Shown piece after piece: positions 24,477-31,905 of a stretch of DNA of 42,222 nt. Source of the stretch: Chloroflexota bacterium (GTDB lineage Bacteria; Chloroflexota; Limnocylindria; Limnocylindrales; CSP1-4); contig JANMCU010000038.1 in the NCBI GenBank assembly GCA_031361415.1, positions 1-42,222 on the forward strand. Direction: 5' to 3'. Both the position numbers and the translations under genes were made by a program. Under the pieces are notes generated by a model. It saw only the letters and a list, made by a program, of their open reading frames with translations. It was not told where the DNA came from and did no database searches. Each line of letters begins with the position of its first letter. The stretch's first letter is position 1.

Positions 24477-24502
24477 CCCTGCGGGTGCAGCGGGCCTCAG
24501 GC
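24471..24502. terminator. Imperfect hairpin spanning both stop codons of convergent genes
   Basis: GCCTGA (24471-24476, includes the aminotransferase TGA) pairs with TCAGGC (24497-24502, includes the DUF3307 gene stop). The inner CCC-TGC/GCA-GGG pairing has a bulge. Confidence 0.35.
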
Positions 24503-25564
24503 GAGGAGGACGCCAAGGGCCGCCCGGCCGATGAGGGCCGTCACGATCGCGACCGACACGCTGGCCAGCGTACCGAGCAGGTAGTACTCGGCGAAATCGC
24601 GATCGTCGAGGAGCCGGAACCGGGCGAGCGTCTTGGCAGCGACGACGAACCCGATCGCGATGTCCGTGCCGGTCAGGACGAAGACGACGATCAGGACCCG
24701 CTCGAGGATGCCGATCGTCGAGCCCACCCGGGCATTGGGGCCGAGGGGTGCCGGCGGCGGCGCGCTCGACCGCACCTCGACCGGAGCGGCCTCGGGCTCG
24801 GCCGTGATCCGCGCGTCGATCGGGCCGAGCCGGATCGACCAGCGCCGCGGCCCGCTTGCGGGCGACAGGGACGGAGGCGCGACCGGGCCGGCCGCGGCAA
24901 ACCCCTCGCCCGCCGCGACTGCCGGCGCGGCCCGGCTACCCCAGCGCTGGTCACCGTCGGCGGAACCCTCCACCGGACGGACGAGGATGCCGACGAACAG
25001 CGACGCGGCCCGGACATTGACGATCAGCAGGATTAGCCCGACGACGAAGACGCTCGCGATCTGGTGGACCGCAGCTCGATCGTGCGTGCCGAGCGCCCAG
25101 TTCACGACATCGACCCAGCCCTGCTGGAGGCTGGCCGCCGGCGGGATCGTCGCCCAGGCGATCCCGATCAGCGCGAGGTGGGCGGCCTGGTCGGCGAGAA
25201 ACAGCGCGGCCGGTCGCGGTGTCCAGGCGCGGCCCAGATGCTCGGGCGGCGGCGGGCTCTCGTGCCGGGAATGGGCCGCGGCGAGGGCGGCCCCGACCGA
25301 CCGCCGGGTCAGGACGACCTTGACCCTGTCGATCACCACGTGCCCGATCGCCACGATCGCGACGAACGTCCAGCCGAAACTGCCGTACGCCAGCCCGATC
25401 GGCGCCGTGCAGACCGCGACGATCAGCCCGTGGGCGACGAGCCCTCCCATGGCCCGGCGGCCGCGTCCTGCCTTCGCGAGCGCCACCCCGCCGGTCTGGA
25501 GGATGAAGTCGGCGGCCACATGGGCGAGGACGAGCCACGCGATGACGAGAACGGGGTCGGCCAT
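24497..25564 (-). CDS. DUF3307-type polytopic membrane protein (long form with a disordered central loop)
   Basis: The start at MADPVLVIAWLVLAHVAADFILQT (typical DUF3307 N-terminus) overlaps the SatD-like stop by 1 nt (TGATG). There are several TM segments and an A/P-rich loop. The conserved C-terminal block is AAKTLARFRLLDDRDFAEYYLLGTLASV. Confidence 0.65.
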   Translation of the reverse strand: MADPVLVIAWLVLAHVAADFILQTGGVALAKAGRGRRAMGGLVAHGLIVAVCTAPIGLAYGSFGWTFVAIVAIGHVVIDRVKVVLTRRSVGAALAAAHSRHESPPPPEHLGRAWTPRPAALFLADQAAHLALIGIAWATIPPAASLQQGWVDVVNWALGTHDRAAVHQIASVFVVGLILLIVNVRAASLFVGILVRPVEGSADGDQRWGSRAAPAVAAGEGFAAAGPVAPPSLSPASGPRRWSIRLGPIDARITAEPEAAPVEVRSSAPPPAPLGPNARVGSTIGILERVLIVVFVLTGTDIAIGFVVAAKTLARFRLLDDRDFAEYYLLGTLASVSVAIVTALIGRAALGVLLA

Positions 25565-26196
25565 CAGGGACGAACCGTGGCCCGCGCGAGCAAAATCCGG
25601 ATGACGCCGGCGAGCTCCCCGATCGAGCGGAGATGGGCCCGGTCGGCCGCGACCGAGATCGTCGCCCGAGTCACCCCAAGCCGCTCGGCGGCCTCGGATC
25701 GGCGCAACCCTTCGACCAGGATCGGCCACGCGATCTCGCGCTGCCGGTCGGTCAGGTCGGCGAGCAGGTCGCCGAGCAGCGGCCCGAGAGGGTCGAGGAG
25801 ATCGTCGGTCGGTGGGTCGCCACTGACGACCGCCAGCCGCTCGCGCCGGGTCGCCGCGATCGCCAGCCGCTCGCGGGCGGTGATGAATGCCGGCCCGCTC
25901 CGTTGCGTCGCCGGGCCGTGGCCCGGGTCGACCTCACCGGCCACGATGACCCAGCGCATCGGCACCGCGTCGGAGTGGAGGCTGGCGCGCAGGATCGCCC
26001 GCATCGGATCCGCCTTCAGCCGGAGCAGGCCCTGGAGCTCGTCGCCCTGGGTGAACTCGAACAGGGCCAGCCGCTCGTCATCCGGGAACGCCTCGGTCAG
26101 GTCCGCCGTCAGCGCCCGCAACCATGCCGTGGCCGCGATCGGTTCGCGACGGGACCGGATGACATCGCCGAACAGCACCAGGGCGGGCACCGCCAA
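25564..26196 (-). CDS. SatD-like protein: N-terminal nucleotide-cyclase-like fold domain plus C-terminal sigma-70 region 4/LuxR-type HTH
   Basis: ALVLFGDVIRSRR at the N-terminus and FTQGDELQGLL recall the SatD family. C-terminal HTH: LTDRQREIAWPILVEGLRRSEAAERLGVTRATISVAADRAHL. TTG start. The family assignment is from memory, not from a search. Confidence 0.55.
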   Translation of the reverse strand: MAVPALVLFGDVIRSRREPIAATAWLRALTADLTEAFPDDERLALFEFTQGDELQGLLRLKADPMRAILRASLHSDAVPMRWVIVAGEVDPGHGPATQRSGPAFITARERLAIAATRRERLAVVSGDPPTDDLLDPLGPLLGDLLADLTDRQREIAWPILVEGLRRSEAAERLGVTRATISVAADRAHLRSIGELAGVIRILLARATVRP

Positions 26197-26213: not shown

Positions 26214-26261
26214 ATTAGCCGTCAATGGCTAATACTCAACCAATTAGCCGTCGACGGCTAG
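26214..26261. promoter_or_regulatory. Twin palindromic operator-like sites upstream of the SatD-like gene
   Basis: Site 1 is ATTAGCC-GTCAAT-GGCTAAT (26214-26233). Site 2 is TAGCCGTCGACGGCTA (26245-26260), a perfect 16-bp palindrome. The sites share AATTAGCCGTC and are offset by 30 bp. They sit in the 61-bp gap between the flavoprotein stop (26258-26260) and the SatD-like start (26196). Confidence 0.6.
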
Positions 26262-27832
26262 CCTAGATCTGTTTCGGCCAGGATCTCGGCGATCCGCGCC
26301 CGGGTGGTCGGCATGTCGAAACGCAACAGGGCGTCCGGTTCGATCGGCCGCTCCTCGACCTTGCCGCCCCGGCGGAGATAGAGGACGGGATAGATCGCAC
26401 CGCTGCCGTCCGCCTCGAGCGTGATCGCGAGCGCATCCGTGTTGCCATCGTCGCCGACCCCGTCGACGAACGCGGCCAGCGGGACCACCCCTTCCTCGCG
26501 CGGCCCGATCGCCGGATCGATCGAGATGACCTTGGCCAGGTAGGCGCGCTGATGCCACAGCTCGGGTGCCGTCGCGAGCTCGTTCAGGATCGCCTCGGCC
26601 AGGCCGGCGGCCGGCAGCGTTCGACGCTCAGGGGCCCCGTCCTGGTCGCCGTGGGTCCGGGCGATATGGCCGGCGAGGACCCGGGCGTTGTAGCGCGCCC
26701 CGTGAACCGCGCCGGAGTTGGCCGGCAGGCCGTGCTTCTTCAACCCGGCCGAGCCCTGCCCGATCGTGCCCGCGAAGAAGATCCCGGGAACGGTCGCGCT
26801 CTCCCAGTACGGGGTCTGGGCCGGGAGCTTTGCCTGCCCGAACGTCGACACGCCGAGCGCCGGCAAATCCAGCAGCGGCGTGACGAACCCGGTCGCGGAG
26901 ATCACCTCGTCGACGTCGATCGCCATCTCCTCGCCGCCATCCGACGGCCGGACGGTCACGACGAATGGCGCCTCGGAGCCGCTCTCGGCGCCGCGCACGA
27001 TCCCCCCGATCGAGGCATCGAGGACGGCCACGCCGCCGCCCAGGACGTGATCCTCGAACGGCTGGACGTAGCGCGCCCGAACGCCGACGAGCGACTTCGT
27101 GTTGACCGACAGCTTGGCGGGCGACGGTGAGCAGAGGACGATCCGACGAGCCCACGGCAGGAGGCCGGTCGCGAGCTCGAAGCCGGAGTTCTGCTTGCCC
27201 ATGATGAACACCCGTCGACCGGCGTACGTCTCGGCCGGCCGCGTGTCTGCGTAGTGGGCCGCGAGCTCGATCCCGGGCGTCGATGGCGCATACGGCTCGG
27301 CGACACCGACGGCGAACACAAGCGCCTTCGCGTGGTACTCGCCATCGGTCGTCTCGAGGACGAAGCGCCCGCCGTCGGGACCGTCCTCGTGACGCGTCGC
27401 CGTCCAGCGGCAGTCGTGCCGGATCCGCGTGCCCGTCCGCGCGACGAACGTCGCGAGGTTCAGCTCCATCTCCGGCCGCGATGGGAAGTACGACGAGCCG
27501 TCCATCAGGTCCGGCATGATCGCGCGCTCGTCCGGGCCATCGCCGAGCAGCGAGTTCCAGTCGTAGCGCTCGTAGGCCGGCGAGTCGCGTTCGACCGGGG
27601 CAAACGGCTTGGTCCACGACAGCAATCGCTGAAAGAACGGCCAGCGCCGGAACATGCCACCGGGCGCCGGGTCGGCCGAGATGAGCGCGTGCGGCACGCC
27701 GCGTCGACCCAGTGAGTACGAGACCTGGATTGCGCCTGCGCCGCTGCCGACGACGACGACCGGGTACTCGCCGGGCGGGAACGGCCGAGGATCGGCCGCG
27801 TCGTTGCCGACGGGCTGGCTCAGCTCCGCCAC
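26258..27832 (-). CDS. FAD/NAD(P)-binding oxidoreductase (flavin-monooxygenase / pyridine nucleotide-disulfide oxidoreductase-like) with a ~120-aa C-terminal extension
   Basis: First dinucleotide motif VVVVGSGAGAIQVSYSL...DPAPGG and second motif RRVFIMGKQNSGFELA; ATGF and FFAGT near the end of the flavin domain. GTG at 27832 is the only sensible in-frame start. It overlaps the upstream cNMP-binding gene by 13 nt, and no strong SD is seen. Confidence 0.75.
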   Translation of the reverse strand: MAELSQPVGNDAADPRPFPPGEYPVVVVGSGAGAIQVSYSLGRRGVPHALISADPAPGGMFRRWPFFQRLLSWTKPFAPVERDSPAYERYDWNSLLGDGPDERAIMPDLMDGSSYFPSRPEMELNLATFVARTGTRIRHDCRWTATRHEDGPDGGRFVLETTDGEYHAKALVFAVGVAEPYAPSTPGIELAAHYADTRPAETYAGRRVFIMGKQNSGFELATGLLPWARRIVLCSPSPAKLSVNTKSLVGVRARYVQPFEDHVLGGGVAVLDASIGGIVRGAESGSEAPFVVTVRPSDGGEEMAIDVDEVISATGFVTPLLDLPALGVSTFGQAKLPAQTPYWESATVPGIFFAGTIGQGSAGLKKHGLPANSGAVHGARYNARVLAGHIARTHGDQDGAPERRTLPAAGLAEAILNELATAPELWHQRAYLAKVISIDPAIGPREEGVVPLAAFVDGVGDDGNTDALAITLEADGSGAIYPVLYLRRGGKVEERPIEPDALLRFDMPTTRARIAEILAETDLG

Positions 27833-28242
27833 CGGTTCGCGTTCCGCAGACGGCGCGCCTGCGCCTGGAGCATCCGGAACATCAGGGGCGGGTTGTCGAG
27901 CAGGACGCCCTTGACCGCCGGGCCTGCCAGGACGAGCGTCCGAAGCGGTCGCGAGGCGACGATGTCCGCACCGGGCGACTCGCCGAGGAGGATCGAGACC
28001 TCGCCGAAGAAGTCGCCCCGGGCGAGGGTCGCCCGCTGCATCCCGTCGATGACGACCTCGGCCTCGCCGTCGAGGATGATGGAGAACGCCGATCCGGACA
28101 GCCCCTGGCGAAGGACCCGGGCGCCGTCGGGGAAGACCTCCTCCTCGAACATGTGGGCGAGCCGCTCGAGCTGTGGCGTGGTCAGGTCGGCGAACAGCGC
28201 GAAGCCGGCGATCTGGTCGACGATCTCGTCGCGGGTGGCCAT
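27820..28242 (-). CDS. Stand-alone cyclic-nucleotide-binding (CNB/CAP effector) domain protein, non-canonical phosphate-binding cassette
   Basis: 140 aa: FALFADLTTPQLERLA...VLRQGLSGSAFSIILDGEAEV...GDFFGEVSILLGESPGADIVA. This is a full beta-barrel CNB domain with no output domain. The PBC reads PGAD where PR(S/T)A is expected. Confidence 0.8.
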   Translation of the reverse strand: MATRDEIVDQIAGFALFADLTTPQLERLAHMFEEEVFPDGARVLRQGLSGSAFSIILDGEAEVVIDGMQRATLARGDFFGEVSILLGESPGADIVASRPLRTLVLAGPAVKGVLLDNPPLMFRMLQAQARRLRNANRWRS

Positions 28243-28297
28243 CGGGCGTGTGTCCTCTCTTCCGATCCCCTCCGGCGCATTCTGCCACCTCTACCCC

Positions 28298-28312
28298 GCG
28301 ACCGACGGTCGC
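28298..28312. promoter_or_regulatory. 15-bp palindrome in the divergent control region of the two CNB genes
   Basis: GCGACCG-A-CGGTCGC (perfect 7-bp arms). It lies in the 145-bp gap between the divergent starts at 28242 and 28388. TTGACG at 28334-28339 and CAGCAT 18 nt later could be the plus-strand promoter. Confidence 0.4.
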
Positions 28313-28387
28313 TGTCGGTGTCCCGCGCCGCGGTTGACGCGAGCCTGATCGAACGCGCAGCATCAACTCCATTCCAGAGGAGGATCC

Positions 28388-28816
28388 GTGACGCTCACCC
28401 AGGACCGTCGGACCGAGCTGCTCGGCGGCTGCCCGCTCTTCGCCGGGGTCGACCGGAACGACCTCGGCGCGATCGGCGAACAGGCGATCGAGGTCGACTT
28501 TCCGGCCGACCACGTGATTGCCCGCCAGGGCGAGATCGGGACCGGGCTGTTCGTCGTGATCGACGGGGCGGTCCGCGTCATCCGCGACGGCACGGAGCTC
28601 GCCCGCCTCGGCGCCGGCGACTTCTTCGGCGAGATGTCGGTGATCGATGGGCTGCCGCGCGTCGCCCAGGTCGTGACGACCGCGCCGACCCGCTGCCTCG
28701 CCCTGGCCAGCTGGGAGTTCGAGCGTCTCGTCCTTGAGCACCCGACGATCGGGCTCGCGATCCTGCGCGGTCTGTCCGCCCGACTGCGGGCGAAGACCGA
28801 TCCCCCGCTCCACTGA
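28388..28816 (+). CDS. Stand-alone cyclic-nucleotide-binding (CNB) domain protein
   Basis: 142 aa: CPLFAGVDRNDLGAIG...IARQGEIGTGLFVVIDGAVRV...GDFFGEMSVIDGLPRVAQVV (the PBC retains Arg). GTG start with AGAGGAGGA 4 nt upstream. No output domain. Confidence 0.85.
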   Translation: MTLTQDRRTELLGGCPLFAGVDRNDLGAIGEQAIEVDFPADHVIARQGEIGTGLFVVIDGAVRVIRDGTELARLGAGDFFGEMSVIDGLPRVAQVVTTAPTRCLALASWEFERLVLEHPTIGLAILRGLSARLRAKTDPPLH

Positions 28817-28847
28817 TCCGGGACGGCCGCGGAACCGACCCGACCCG

Positions 28848-31589
28848 ATGAGCAGCCTTCCGACTGGAACCGTCGCCTTCGTCTTCACCGACATCGAGGG
28901 CTCGACCCACCTCGCTCAGACGCTGCCCGAGGACCGCTGGTCGGCGACGCTCGCCCGGCACCGCGAGCTCGTCCGGGCGGCCGTGGCGGCCCATGGCGGA
29001 GTCGAGGTCTCGACCGAGGGCGACGGCTTCTTCCTCGTCTTCGCCCGGACCGCCGACGCGATCGCGGCCACCGTCGATGCCCAGCGGGCCCTGTCCGGCG
29101 AGCCCTGGCCGGCGGACGCCGTCGTCCGCGTCCGGATGGGCATCCACACCGGCGACGGCCGGCTCGACGCGGACGGCAGCTACATTGGGGCGGACGTCCA
29201 TCGCGCGGCCCGGGTGTCCGCGGCGGGTCACGGCGGGCAGGTGCTCCTGTCAGAGACGACCTCGGGCCTCGTCGCCGACGAGTTGCCGGCCGGCGTCGGG
29301 CTGCGCGGCCTCGGCGAGCATCGCCTCAAGGATCTCCGGCCCGAGCGGATCTGCCAGCTCGTGATCGAGGGCGAGCGGGTCGACTTCCCACCGATCCGCT
29401 CGCTCGATCGCCGGCCGAACAACCTGCCGACCCAGCTCACGAGCTTCGTCGGCCGCGAGAAGCCCCTGGCCGAGGCCGAGGCCCTGCTCCAGACGACGCG
29501 GCTGCTGACCCTGACGGGGCCCGGCGGCACCGGCAAAACCCGACTGTCGCTCCAGCTCGCGGCCAACGTCGCCGAGCGGTTCCCGGACGGGATCTGGTTC
29601 ATTGCCCTCGAACCGGTCCGCGATCCGGGACTCGTCGCTGGCACGATCCTGACGACCCTCGGTCTCGTCGAGGCGGGCGGGCGCTCGGCCCGCGACGTTC
29701 TGGTCGACTGGCTGGCCAATCGACAGATCCTGCTCGTCCTCGACAACTTCGAGCAGGTCATCGAAGGCGCCCCGGTCGTGGCCGACCTCCTCCGGAACGC
29801 GCCCCGCGTGTCGGTCATCGTCACGAGCCGGGCGCCGCTCCGGGTCAGCGGGGAGCAGGAGTACCCGGTGCCCGGCCTGCCGGCTCCGCGCGACGTCCTC
29901 GCCCTGTCCGATCTCGAGAAGATGAACCTGCCGGCGCAGGACAGGCGGCTGGATGCGGCGGCCGCGACCCAGTTCGAGGCTGTTCGCCTGTTCATCGCCC
30001 GCGCCATCGGGGTCCGGCCGGACTTCAAGGTGACGAACGAGAACGCACCCGCGGTCGCGGGCATCGCCGCCCGTCTCCACGGGATGCCGCTCGCGATCGA
30101 GCTGGCAGCGGCGCGAGTCAAGCTCCTCCCGCCCGACGCCATCCTCGAACGTCTCGAGCACCAGCTCGGCATGCTCGCGTCAGGTTCGCGCGACCTGCCC
30201 GAGCGCCAGCAGACCCTGCGCGGGGCGATCGCCTGGAGCCACGACCTGCTCGATGACGGTCAGCGCCGGCTGCTCGCCCGATTGTCGGTCTTCGTCGGCG
30301 GCTGCGAGCTCGACAGCGCGGAGGCCATCTGCGGTCCCGCCTCCGAGCTGGCCGGGCTCGACGTCCTCGACGGCCTGCTGGCCCTCGCCGACCAGAGCCT
30401 CGTCCGGGCCGAGGAGATCGACGGCGAGACGCGCTTCCGGATGCTCGACACGATCCGCGAGTTCGCGGCCGAGCAGCTCACGGCGTCCGGCCAGCGCGAC
30501 GACATCCACCGCCGCCACAGCGACACGTTCGTCGTCCTGGCCGAGTCGCTCACGCCGCTCCTGTCGGGCGACGACCAGCGCCGCTGGCTCGGTCGCCTGG
30601 AGCGCGACCACGACAACATCCGGGCCGTCCTCGATCGGGCCGAGGCGGCCGGCGAGGCCGAGACCGCGATCCGGCTCGGCTTCGCGATGTGGCGCTACTG
30701 GCAGAAGCGCGGCCACCTCGCCGAGGCCCGCCGCCGGCTCCAGGCGATGGCCGACGCGTCATGGTCGCGCGCCGATCCGCGGCTCCGGGCCCGGCTGATG
30801 GAGGCTCTCGGGGGCGTGTGCTGGTGGCAGGCCGACATCCCGGCGATGGGCGTCGCCTATGGAGAGGCGCTCGAGCTCTGGCAGGCGATCGGCGACAAGC
30901 GCGAGATCGCCAATGCCCTGTACAACGACTCGTTCCGGTTTGCCGTGAGCGAGACGGCCGGCGATCGAGATCCCGATCGGATCGGCTTCAACCAGATGGT
31001 TCGGGCCCGGGATCTTGCGACCGAGGTCGGCGACGAGCGTGGCCGGGCGAATGCGTTCTGGGGGATCGGCAACTGGCAGTGGTTCCACGCCGCGGAGGAC
31101 CACGGCATCGCCCATTTCGCTGAGGCGCTCGGCGTGTTCCGGGGCCTCGGCGATCGGACGATGGAGGCCTGGTCGCACCACATGCTCGGGACCGCCCAGA
31201 TCCGCCTCGGGCCGATGGACGAGTCACGACGCAACGTGGAGGCGGCGCTCCGGCTCTTCCACCGCTTCGGCGACGTCGCGGGGATCACGCTGAGCCTCGA
31301 CGACTTCGCGTCGCTTGCGATCGCCACCGGCGACCTGCCACGCGCGGCGCGTCTATGGGGCGCGGCCCGCGCCCTGTCGGCGGCAGGTGGCGTCGGGCTG
31401 GCCGATTTCGTCGACACCCAGTTCGAGTTCCACGGCCGCCCGAATGCCCGCATCGCGATCGACCCGGCCGAGTTGGAGAAATACGCCGTCGAAGGTCGGG
31501 CCATGACCCTTGACGAAAGCGTCGCCTACGCGCTCGAGACGGATATCGACTCGTTGGCGCCGCACGATCACGCGGGCGCCACCCGATGA
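28848..31589 (+). CDS. Class III nucleotidyl cyclase domain fused to a STAND (AAA/NB-ARC-like) NTPase and C-terminal TPR repeats
   Basis: Cyclase: GTVAFVFTDIEGST, STEGDGFFLVF, RVRMGIHTGD, GADVHRAARV. NTPase: Walker A GPGGTGKTRL, Walker B LLVLDNFEQV, VIVTSR, then the winged-helix block GMPLAIELAAARV. About 350 aa of TPR-like helical repeats follow (WRYWQKRGHLAEARR..., NALYNDSF..., FWGIGNWQW...). No LuxR/HTH output domain. Confidence 0.85.
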   Translation: MSSLPTGTVAFVFTDIEGSTHLAQTLPEDRWSATLARHRELVRAAVAAHGGVEVSTEGDGFFLVFARTADAIAATVDAQRALSGEPWPADAVVRVRMGIHTGDGRLDADGSYIGADVHRAARVSAAGHGGQVLLSETTSGLVADELPAGVGLRGLGEHRLKDLRPERICQLVIEGERVDFPPIRSLDRRPNNLPTQLTSFVGREKPLAEAEALLQTTRLLTLTGPGGTGKTRLSLQLAANVAERFPDGIWFIALEPVRDPGLVAGTILTTLGLVEAGGRSARDVLVDWLANRQILLVLDNFEQVIEGAPVVADLLRNAPRVSVIVTSRAPLRVSGEQEYPVPGLPAPRDVLALSDLEKMNLPAQDRRLDAAAATQFEAVRLFIARAIGVRPDFKVTNENAPAVAGIAARLHGMPLAIELAAARVKLLPPDAILERLEHQLGMLASGSRDLPERQQTLRGAIAWSHDLLDDGQRRLLARLSVFVGGCELDSAEAICGPASELAGLDVLDGLLALADQSLVRAEEIDGETRFRMLDTIREFAAEQLTASGQRDDIHRRHSDTFVVLAESLTPLLSGDDQRRWLGRLERDHDNIRAVLDRAEAAGEAETAIRLGFAMWRYWQKRGHLAEARRRLQAMADASWSRADPRLRARLMEALGGVCWWQADIPAMGVAYGEALELWQAIGDKREIANALYNDSFRFAVSETAGDRDPDRIGFNQMVRARDLATEVGDERGRANAFWGIGNWQWFHAAEDHGIAHFAEALGVFRGLGDRTMEAWSHHMLGTAQIRLGPMDESRRNVEAALRLFHRFGDVAGITLSLDDFASLAIATGDLPRAARLWGAARALSAAGGVGLADFVDTQFEFHGRPNARIAIDPAELEKYAVEGRAMTLDESVAYALETDIDSLAPHDHAGATR

Positions 31590-31653
31590 TGGCTGGCGTC
31601 GGCGCCCGTTTGCGCCCGATGAGCACATCCGACGTGTTCGGCGAGGTGGTTGC

Positions 31654-31905
31654 ATGAATTTCGCGCCCGGCGAACCAAATCGGCCGATTCGGGTCGGATT
31701 CGGTCCTGATGACCGGTCACCAACGTCGATCTCGGCGGATGTGCTCACGGGGCGAGAATCGCCGCCGATCCGGCTCCTCGATGATGAGATCGACCCGGGC
31801 ACCGTCGTCTTGACCTGTGCGAACTGCGGCGCCGCGATGGACGAGCGGAAATGCAAGCTGATCTGTCGCTGCGGCTACTTCCTGTCCTGCTCGGACTACT
31901 ACTGA
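31654..31905 (+). CDS. Small (83 aa) protein with a C-terminal Cys-rich zinc-ribbon-like motif, function unknown
   Basis: MNFAPGEPNRPIRVGF...LTCANCGAAMDERKCKLICRCGYFLSCSDYY. GAGGTGG lies 4 nt upstream of the ATG, and the codon third-position bias is coding-like. Confidence 0.55.
   Translation: MNFAPGEPNRPIRVGFGPDDRSPTSISADVLTGRESPPIRLLDDEIDPGTVVLTCANCGAAMDERKCKLICRCGYFLSCSDYY

Follow-up and report, generated by a model that had tools for sequence, protein, structure and literature searches.

We analysed the complete 42,222-bp contig JANMCU010000038.1 of a soil Chloroflexota bacterium (~70% G+C), called the window here, and found in it a real and apparently undescribed signalling module based on cyclic nucleoside monophosphates (cNMP), with a flavoenzyme as its probable output. 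In the mechanism that we infer, a chromosomal class III cyclase would signal through a protein of the cyclic-nucleotide-binding (CNB) fold, which is translated together with an NAD(P)H/FAD oxidoreductase and is its probable binding partner. We consider the chances of this reading to be about even. The module consists of two divergent operons, with two CNB-fold proteins (CNBm and CNBp), the flavoprotein and a large cyclase-STAND-TPR protein, arranged in the window as follows.

26258-27832, minus strand: flavoprotein gene, 524 aa, Pfam Pyr_redox_3 (E=7e-20) and Pyr_redox_2
27820-28242, minus strand: CNBm gene, 140 aa, Pfam cNMP_binding (PF00027, E=7e-10)
27820-27832, minus strand: 13-nt overlap (GTGGCGGAGCTGA) between the CNBm stop and the GTG start of the flavoprotein gene
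28243-28387, no strand assigned: divergent intergenic region between CNBm and CNBp, with two conserved promoter-like motifs
28388-28816, plus strand: CNBp gene, first of the cyclase operon, 142 aa, Pfam cNMP_binding (E=9e-19)
28848-31589, plus strand: cyclase-STAND-TPR gene, 913 aa, Pfam Guanylate_cyc (E=1.5e-8)

A first-pass annotation of this DNA had described these genes, together with a small zinc-ribbon open reading frame (ORF), as a divergent five-ORF unit. All five ORFs were found where it had placed them, and both the 13-nt overlap and the 31-nt gap between CNBp and the cyclase gene are real. The G+C content at third codon positions (GC3) was 0.90-0.94 in the four large genes, the coding signature of a 70% GC genome, and dropped sharply in their alternative upstream extensions. 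The GTG start of CNBp is preceded by a GGAGGA Shine-Dalgarno sequence. Profile searches, which the same annotation had proposed, returned Pfam matches for the flavoprotein, both CNB proteins and the cyclase domain, and matches below the cut-offs for the NTPase and TPR regions. Alignment of 15 related intergenic regions revealed two conserved blocks that look promoter-like. The one upstream of CNBp comprises TTGACG (28334-28339), an 18-nt spacer and CAGCAT (28358-28363); the one upstream of CNBm, GCATTCTGCCAC (28277-28288), reads TGGCAGAAT on the minus strand and resembles an extended -10 element. No operator shared by the two operons was seen in these 15 regions.

Conservation of the gene set was assessed by scanning one genome per GTDB species with an alignment of seven flavoprotein sequences, which yielded 405 loci with a flavoprotein relative. 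The linkage counts reported here refer to the best 80 of these 405 loci (61-83% identity), all from Limnocylindria-type metagenome-assembled genomes (MAGs), and their denominators include only loci whose flanks were long enough to decide. The CNBm gene lay directly upstream of the flavoprotein gene in 78/78 loci, and a cyclase-STAND-TPR gene was located within 2.5 kb of this pair in 68/68. CNBp was present and divergently oriented in 62 of 68 loci. The 13-nt overlap recurred unchanged in at least 53 of 86 loci, counting the window. The exact flavoprotein sequence of the window had no record in the protein database look-up; the flavoprotein and the cyclase protein are each represented by more than 120 database clusters at 71-100% identity (73-99% for the flavoprotein clusters). 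The nearest relatives of the window proteins belong to MAGs named Candidatus Limnocylindrales or Chloroflexota, so that the host is a Limnocylindria-type member of the Chloroflexota and not an actinobacterium. Median identities to the window proteins were 64% for the flavoprotein, 67% for CNBm, 60% for CNBp and 57% for the cyclase, compared to 81% for ThyX, 78% for the phosphorylase, 79% for the aminotransferase, 69% for MoaA and 56% for the S15 peptidase among the core neighbours. The module therefore evolves like core genes (57-67% versus 56-81%), and its genes read as a conserved, chromosomal and vertically inherited set. The proposed co-occurrence analysis thus revealed conserved linkage, in contexts that are housekeeping and syntenic and not those of defence islands. 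Linkage within a single class is nevertheless weak evidence taken alone, because the housekeeping flanks are syntenic too.

More distant contexts, obtained from look-ups of the flavoprotein relatives P0246, P0251, P0387 and P0248 and from a metagenome scan, were more informative, as the functional linkage counted above (68/68 to 78/78 related loci) survives rearrangement and cyclase replacement in other lineages. At locus L021 the genes follow each other on a single strand in the order cyclase-STAND-TPR, CNBm, flavoprotein; CNBp is absent and the flanks differ, with an MscS channel and an acetyl-CoA synthetase on one side and IclR and aminotransferases on the other. Members of the Gaiellaceae (Actinomycetota) encode a flavoprotein 43-45% and a CNBm 57-60% identical to those of the window. 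There, a CNB gene of 137-157 aa overlaps the start of the flavoprotein gene in three different genomic contexts, by 7-10 nt in L084 and L085 and by 59 nt as called in L086. Three loci from metagenomes, L091-L093, encode a flavoprotein 50-52% identical to that of the window; here the pair has as neighbours another CNB gene, divergently oriented, and a convergent TPR-cyclase gene of 532-656 aa. This cyclase protein has the reverse domain order and no NTPase, and its cyclase domain belongs to the same subfamily as that of the window, with canonical Lys and Asp. Another locus, L098 (flavoprotein 52% identical), has a divergent canonical membrane adenylyl cyclase adjoining a CNBm-type gene and the flavoprotein gene; its motifs KTIGDCYM and YDLWGDAVNTASRME are readable, the gene being split by assembly frameshifts. 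No second CNB gene was detected at L098, so that the CNBm-type protein is the sole CNB protein there. The pair is also kept in L095 and L096 (flavoprotein 55% identical): neither a second CNB gene nor a cyclase gene was detected in the upstream flank of L095, whose downstream flank is cut, and L096 is too short to show its flanks. The most divergent arrangement was observed in L090 (flavoprotein 45% identical), where a 1039-aa DUF4062-cyclase-STAND-TPR protein overlaps the start of the flavoprotein by 4 nt. This protein is 34% identical to the window cyclase protein over 829 aa, its cyclase domain is degenerate, and no CNB gene at all is found at this locus. The more remote flavoprotein relatives that were examined (28-33% identity) had neither a CNB nor a cyclase partner. 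Altogether, four lineages place cyclases of four architectures beside the pair, with no fixed side or strand. As the pair persists while the cyclase architectures change, the conserved core is the flavoprotein and CNBm, together with a recurrent and replaceable cyclase.

Several features of these distant loci were recorded separately. The second, divergent CNB protein of the L091-L093 lineage (L092:540-962, minus strand) has a His at the position of the phosphate-binding Arg (GATHSARV) and is for this reason not a simple CNBp orthologue. Between the flavoprotein and TPR-cyclase genes, L092 and L093 contain ORFs of 133 aa (L092:2902-3303 and L093:2093-2494, both minus strand) with a His-rich N-terminus (HAHxHxHG), 51% mutual identity and no Pfam match; these could represent genuine small genes, or else antisense ORFs in GC-rich DNA. 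In L090 (L090:1-6004), the only contig of this kind seen, the gene of the DUF4062 protein comes after genes for a SARP/BTAD-AAA_16 regulator and a BBE-type FAD oxidase. A 30%-identity flavoprotein relative (L087-L089) is accompanied by a radical-SAM/SPASM enzyme, a 71-aa ORF, a 2-oxoglutarate-Fe(II) oxygenase and a MacB-type ABC transporter. This cluster looks like one for a peptide natural product, and no CNB or cyclase genes were found in it. Another remote relative is located on a chromosome-sized replicon of Nonomuraea.

The 913-aa protein starts with a class III cyclase domain (~aa 1-180), followed by a STAND/NB-ARC-like NTPase (~aa 195-330; Walker A GPGGTGKT) with a winged helix and by a TPR region (~aa 560-850). 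The order cyclase, STAND NTPase, TPR had been proposed from the start and is borne out by Pfam, with a Guanylate_cyc match above its cut-off and AAA_16, AAA_22, NB-ARC, nSTAND1/3 and TPR_12 matches below theirs. No Pfam match to a C-terminal LuxR/GerE helix-turn-helix (HTH) was obtained in this protein, the C-terminal region giving TPR only. The cyclase domain displays the motifs FTDIEGST, EGDGF and AAR. All 80 loci retain both metal-binding Asp residues as well as the transition-state Arg and the Walker A Lys, which makes catalysis plausible. The transition-state Asn position is occupied by Asn in 60 of the 80 loci and by His in the other 20, among which the window. The base-specifying positions vary among orthologues; those of the window, Ser/Ser, correspond to neither a Lys/Asp nor a Glu/Cys-type pair, and the product of the cyclase is not readable from its sequence.

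The two CNB proteins have PF00027 as their only Pfam domain and are 29% identical to each other. They had been described as two receptors; their sequences show that they are not equivalent ones. Both exceeded the PF00027 cut-off of 27.5 bits, CNBp reaching 67.7 and CNBm 39.1. The phosphate-binding cassette of CNBp, FGEMSVIDGLPRVAQV, is canonical with both Glu and Arg kept, and the pattern FGE...PRxA was found in 74/74 orthologues (FGE...PRVA in the window), so that CNBp is predicted to be a credible nucleotide receptor. In CNBm, whose cassette FGEVSILLGESPGADIV follows the pattern FGE(V/I)S.L...P.AD, a Pro is aligned with the Arg. This P-x-A-D cassette lacking the Arg was present wherever a cassette was read, in both phyla, including the Gaiellaceae, L092, L093 and L098. 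CNBm may thus either bind nucleotides differently or bind something else. It is also the sole CNB protein next to a cyclase in six Limnocylindria-type loci, as in L098. The top-ranked NCBIfam match of CNBm, and the second-ranked one of CNBp, was the CNB part of the acetyltransferase Pat. The proposal that a CNB-only protein is the partner of the flavoenzyme with which it is co-translated gained strength, as both phyla keep the two genes overlapping. CNBm behaves as a dedicated partner of the flavoprotein: the genetic coupling is observed directly, and a physical interaction would be its likely counterpart.

Apparent CNB-flavoprotein fusions were considered as Rosetta-stone evidence and rejected. 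Four such entries (P0262, P0288, P0308 and P0329) were retrieved. Alignment of P0329 and P0308, the only two that were aligned, revealed junk segments rich in Arg, Pro and Ser, of the sort that frameshifts in long-read assemblies typically create; the other two entries, P0262 and P0288, are collinear with the two overlapping genes. These entries indicate just that a CNB gene lies directly upstream, and they illustrate how apparent fusions in large protein collections can mimic Rosetta-stone fusions.

The flavoprotein is an FAD/NAD(P)H protein of the thioredoxin reductase (TrxR)-like fold, with two dinucleotide-binding domains. Its relatives carry the Joint Genome Institute (JGI) name 'thioredoxin reductase', a label that is not supported because no CxxC motif occurs in the sequence. 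The closest solved structures by sequence, all remote, were the TrxR-like protein 2zbw and type II flavin monooxygenases (FMO). An AlphaFold2 model (mean predicted local distance difference test, pLDDT, 79; predicted TM-score, pTM, 0.83) was submitted to Foldseek, and the best TM-scores were obtained with YpdA/Bdr (7a76, 0.77) and SMFMO (4c5o, 0.71) over residues 1 to ~395. Scores against the YpdA/Bdr model TIGR04018 (28 bits, cut-off 339.9) and the ArsO model NF040505 (51 bits, cut-off 425) were far below the thresholds. Residues ~390-524 (window 26261-26665, minus strand) form a family-specific alpha/beta C-terminal domain of ~135 aa. Modelled alone it reached a pLDDT of 86.7 and a pTM of 0.81, and a fold search of the PDB with this domain gave no significant match (best E 0.14). 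The 45%-identity relatives P0246 and P0251 align through this domain, the 30%-identity relatives only with large insertions.

On this basis, we propose the following sequence of events. From the domain order and from what is known of these families, the TPR region would sense a ligand or a protein, upon which the STAND NTPase would oligomerise and bring the cyclase domains into contact; in class III cyclases the active sites arise at a dimer interface. The cyclase would then produce a 3',5'-cNMP, most likely cyclic AMP (cAMP), which we favour because cyclases in the equivalent position elsewhere carry the adenine-specifying Lys/Asp. CNBp, judging by its motif, would bind this cNMP through the canonical cassette. 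CNBm would serve as a regulatory subunit of the flavoenzyme, relaying the signal directly or via CNBp, and both its ligand and its contact with the enzyme are predictions. The output would be physiological, probably redox or small-molecule oxidation, and not cell killing. We tentatively extend this scheme one step further, to a version that is possible although it falls well short of probable: by analogy with the regulatory/catalytic split of protein kinase A, CNBm would be a detachable, ligand-controlled regulatory subunit of the flavoenzyme, the pair would represent a new class of bacterial cAMP output in Chloroflexota and Actinomycetota, and its driver in Limnocylindria would be an NLR-like STAND-gated cyclase used for physiology, not immunity.

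Four observations weigh against a cNMP-controlled flavoenzyme. Part of the linkage in Limnocylindria could be inherited synteny, since the housekeeping flanks are also conserved. The Gaiellaceae pairs have no cyclase gene within 10 kb (L084-L086). The window cyclase reads Ser/Ser at its base-specifying residues and His for the transition-state Asn. Finally, as CNBm is devoid of the phosphate-binding Arg, canonical cNMP binding by the partner of the flavoprotein is doubtful. Some of these points favour the alternative that fares best, which we nonetheless regard as unlikely: two independent units would merely be neighbours, one formed by the cyclase and CNBp, the other by the flavoenzyme and a CNBm that no longer binds cNMP, leaving the flavoenzyme outside cNMP control. 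CNBm would then bind another ligand or be a constitutive structural or regulatory subunit. The Pro that replaces the Arg in every CNBm cassette read, the Gaiellaceae pairs without a nearby cyclase, the low identity (just 29%) between the CNB proteins and the separate conserved promoter-like motif of each operon all fit this separation. It is, however, hard to see without a functional tie why cyclases of four architectures should stand by the pair in four lineages. CNBm being the only CNB protein beside a cyclase in L098 and in the six Limnocylindria-type loci also speaks against the separation.

A second alternative, which we find quite improbable, places the flavoenzyme upstream of the cyclase, where it would produce, degrade or alter a metabolite or redox signal sensed by the TPR/STAND part, or else makes it a tailoring oxygenase for a cNMP-regulated product. 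Its FMO-like fold would suit such a role, and in L090 the STAND-TPR protein is coupled straight to the flavoprotein with no CNB protein between them. The BBE-type FAD oxidase and SARP-type regulator upstream in L090, and the 30%-identity family member in a radical-SAM/SPASM and ABC-transporter cluster resembling those for ribosomally synthesised and post-translationally modified peptides, point in the same direction. However, neither the window nor the 80 related genomes show biosynthetic genes alongside the module, and the tight coupling with CNBm suggests that the enzyme is the regulated party.

The first-pass annotation had also raised a defence function close to Pycsar, and the module does share some traits with immune systems. 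The effector-NTPase-TPR logic resembles that of Avs/NLR-type proteins, one relative (L090) carries an extra N-terminal DUF4062 domain, and PADLOC reported weak matches of the CNB domains to Pycsar effector models. These matches cover only the CNB part of the models, and beyond the CNB domain PADLOC returned nothing except weak TPR and P-loop matches; in particular, the cyclase matched neither PycC nor any Avs model. The 913-aa protein does possess the STAND NTPase core and C-terminal repeats expected of Avs (both matched below Pfam cut-offs), but its N-terminal domain is a cyclase and not a cell-killing effector. The CNB proteins lack any TIR, transmembrane or nuclease part. No integrase, phage gene, known defence gene or mobile gene was found in the 42-kb window, and the distribution was neither patchy nor of the defence-island type, the cyclase being present in 68/68 related loci with housekeeping synteny. 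The cyclase-CNBm-flavoprotein core occurs in every related locus with enough sequence, and its divergence matches that of core neighbours. The flavoprotein had no homologue in phage collections and no close one in plasmid collections, where just two remote matches (28-33% identity) were obtained, on actinomycete mega-replicons; the one examined, in Nonomuraea, has no CNB or cyclase gene nearby. An antiviral or abortive-infection system, in which the STAND sensor would activate the cyclase and the CNB proteins would relay its signal to a toxic effector, is thus very improbable.

Beyond this core, three accessory genes were identified in the window.

31654-31905, plus strand: zinc-ribbon gene, 83 aa from ATG 31654, conserved core 31804-31902
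25564-26196, minus strand: HTH gene, 210 aa, with a C-terminal sigma70 region 4/KorA-like HTH
24497-25564, minus strand: DUF3307 membrane protein gene, Pfam DUF3307 (E=1e-13)

The zinc-ribbon ORF has a weak GC3 of 0.76 and its conservation is confined to the last 33 codons (31804-31902, peptide VVLTCANCGAAMDERKCKLICRCGYFLSCSDYY), the N-terminus being free to vary. Among relatives this core is 97-100% identical at the protein level and every DNA difference is a synonymous third-position change; it is a real small protein. It had indeed been proposed as a gene, with a longer reading from TTG 31510; the gene stands, and its start is more likely ATG 31654, which is preceded by GAGGTGG and aligns with the start in L003. 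The gene follows the cyclase gene in 24 of 65 related loci and is absent from L002. A zinc-finger model, HVO_2523, was tried for the core and was not assigned, as it scored 17 bits against a cut-off of 60. On the other strand, the unit had been described as ending with the flavoprotein gene. Its two genes are as described, but the unit in the window genome probably extends past the flavoprotein, into the HTH gene and then the DUF3307 gene: the former starts 61 nt downstream of the flavoprotein gene, and the ATG of the latter overlaps the stop of the former (TGATG). The HTH protein matches Pfam KORA (E=2e-7) and, weakly, the NCBIfam sigma70-ECF; an N-terminal part of 140 aa precedes its HTH. 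The HTH gene lies downstream of the flavoprotein gene in 20/67 related loci and the DUF3307 gene in 19/67 (~30%).

The neighbours of the locus are thyX, a purine-nucleoside-phosphorylase-type gene, moaA and genes for an aminotransferase and a peptidase, in a synteny kept across the class. At L002 (L002:1117-3889; same contig as L010), an insertion of Band_7/flotillin and TelA genes separates the cyclase gene from thyX. Elsewhere the contig consists of ordinary housekeeping genes, encoding an Opp/Dpp-type ABC transporter, an LD-carboxypeptidase, an S15 peptidase, a ParA-like ATPase and an acetyl-CoA synthetase. An Rfam scan of the whole window gave no match.

The component families of this module are known individually, and it was their combination that had been put forward as undescribed. 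This assertion has withstood a full-text literature search, which retrieved no CNB-fold/flavoprotein pairing and no recurrent association of such a pair with cyclases. Nothing relevant was found on an association of CNB proteins with flavin monooxygenases or thioredoxin reductases, on Limnocylindria cyclases, or on stand-alone CNB proteins with STAND/TPR cyclases, and the combination is absent from an eLife survey of NTP-dependent conflict systems. The main known bacterial outputs of cAMP are CRP-type transcription factors, a protein acetyltransferase, channels, universal stress proteins and antiviral effectors. If our reading is correct, a free-standing CNB adaptor for a flavoenzyme would add to them an output that acts at the enzyme level and is linked to redox. 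The CNBm-flavoprotein pair recurs with several cyclase architectures in two phyla of uncultured bacteria that abound in soils and fresh waters, and the effector-NTPase-TPR layout, now often read as immune, is encountered here in a housekeeping setting that is core and inherited vertically. With three or four genes, the module is compact enough to be tested directly in vitro.

Cyclase-ATPase-TPR proteins are common. Those of the M. tuberculosis Rv0386, Rv1358 and Rv2488c type are chromosomal signalling genes that encode a class III cyclase at the N-terminus, then a STAND-type P-loop NTPase and helical repeats, and the base-specifying residues of Rv0386 are non-canonical. The window protein resembles the Rv0386 type in its cyclase-NTPase-repeat order, its non-canonical base-specifying residues and its chromosomal location. 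It differs from the Rv0386-type cyclase-ATPase-LuxR proteins by the C-terminal LuxR-type HTH that they carry, none being detected in the window protein, and we know of no mycobacterial Rv0386-type gene that has CNB-only and flavoprotein genes as neighbours. The multidomain class III cyclases of Actinobacteria that contain ATPase and TPR regions have been surveyed (PMC2447327). Among solved cyclases the best match (E=5e-18 over residues 4-138) was Ma1120, the minimal class III adenylyl cyclase of Mycobacterium avium (PDB 4wp3 and related entries), which has the metal motifs FTDIE.ST and GDGF and the AAR motif in common with the window cyclase. Ma1120 is a stand-alone domain with Lys/Asp, whereas the window cyclase has Ser/Ser, a His at the Asn position and a fusion to STAND-TPR.

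Pycsar systems associate a pyrimidine cyclase with a cyclic-pyrimidine receptor/effector (PMC11224242). The window is similar in that a cyclase gene adjoins a gene for a CNB protein, and different in that its cyclase has no PycC match, its CNB proteins have no TIR or transmembrane domain and the locus is core and flanked by housekeeping genes. Bdr/YpdA, SMFMO and TrxR-like ferredoxin-NADP reductases have the same two Rossmann-type domains as the window flavoprotein and likewise no CxxC; compared to Bdr/YpdA and SMFMO, the window flavoprotein adds the ~135-aa C-terminal domain and an obligate CNB-fold partner gene. In the mycobacterial cAMP-regulated acetyltransferase Pat/KATmt, a CNB module likewise controls an enzyme and not DNA binding. 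There, the CNB module is fused to the acetyltransferase, whereas the window module encodes it as a free-standing polypeptide, with a flavoprotein as the enzyme.

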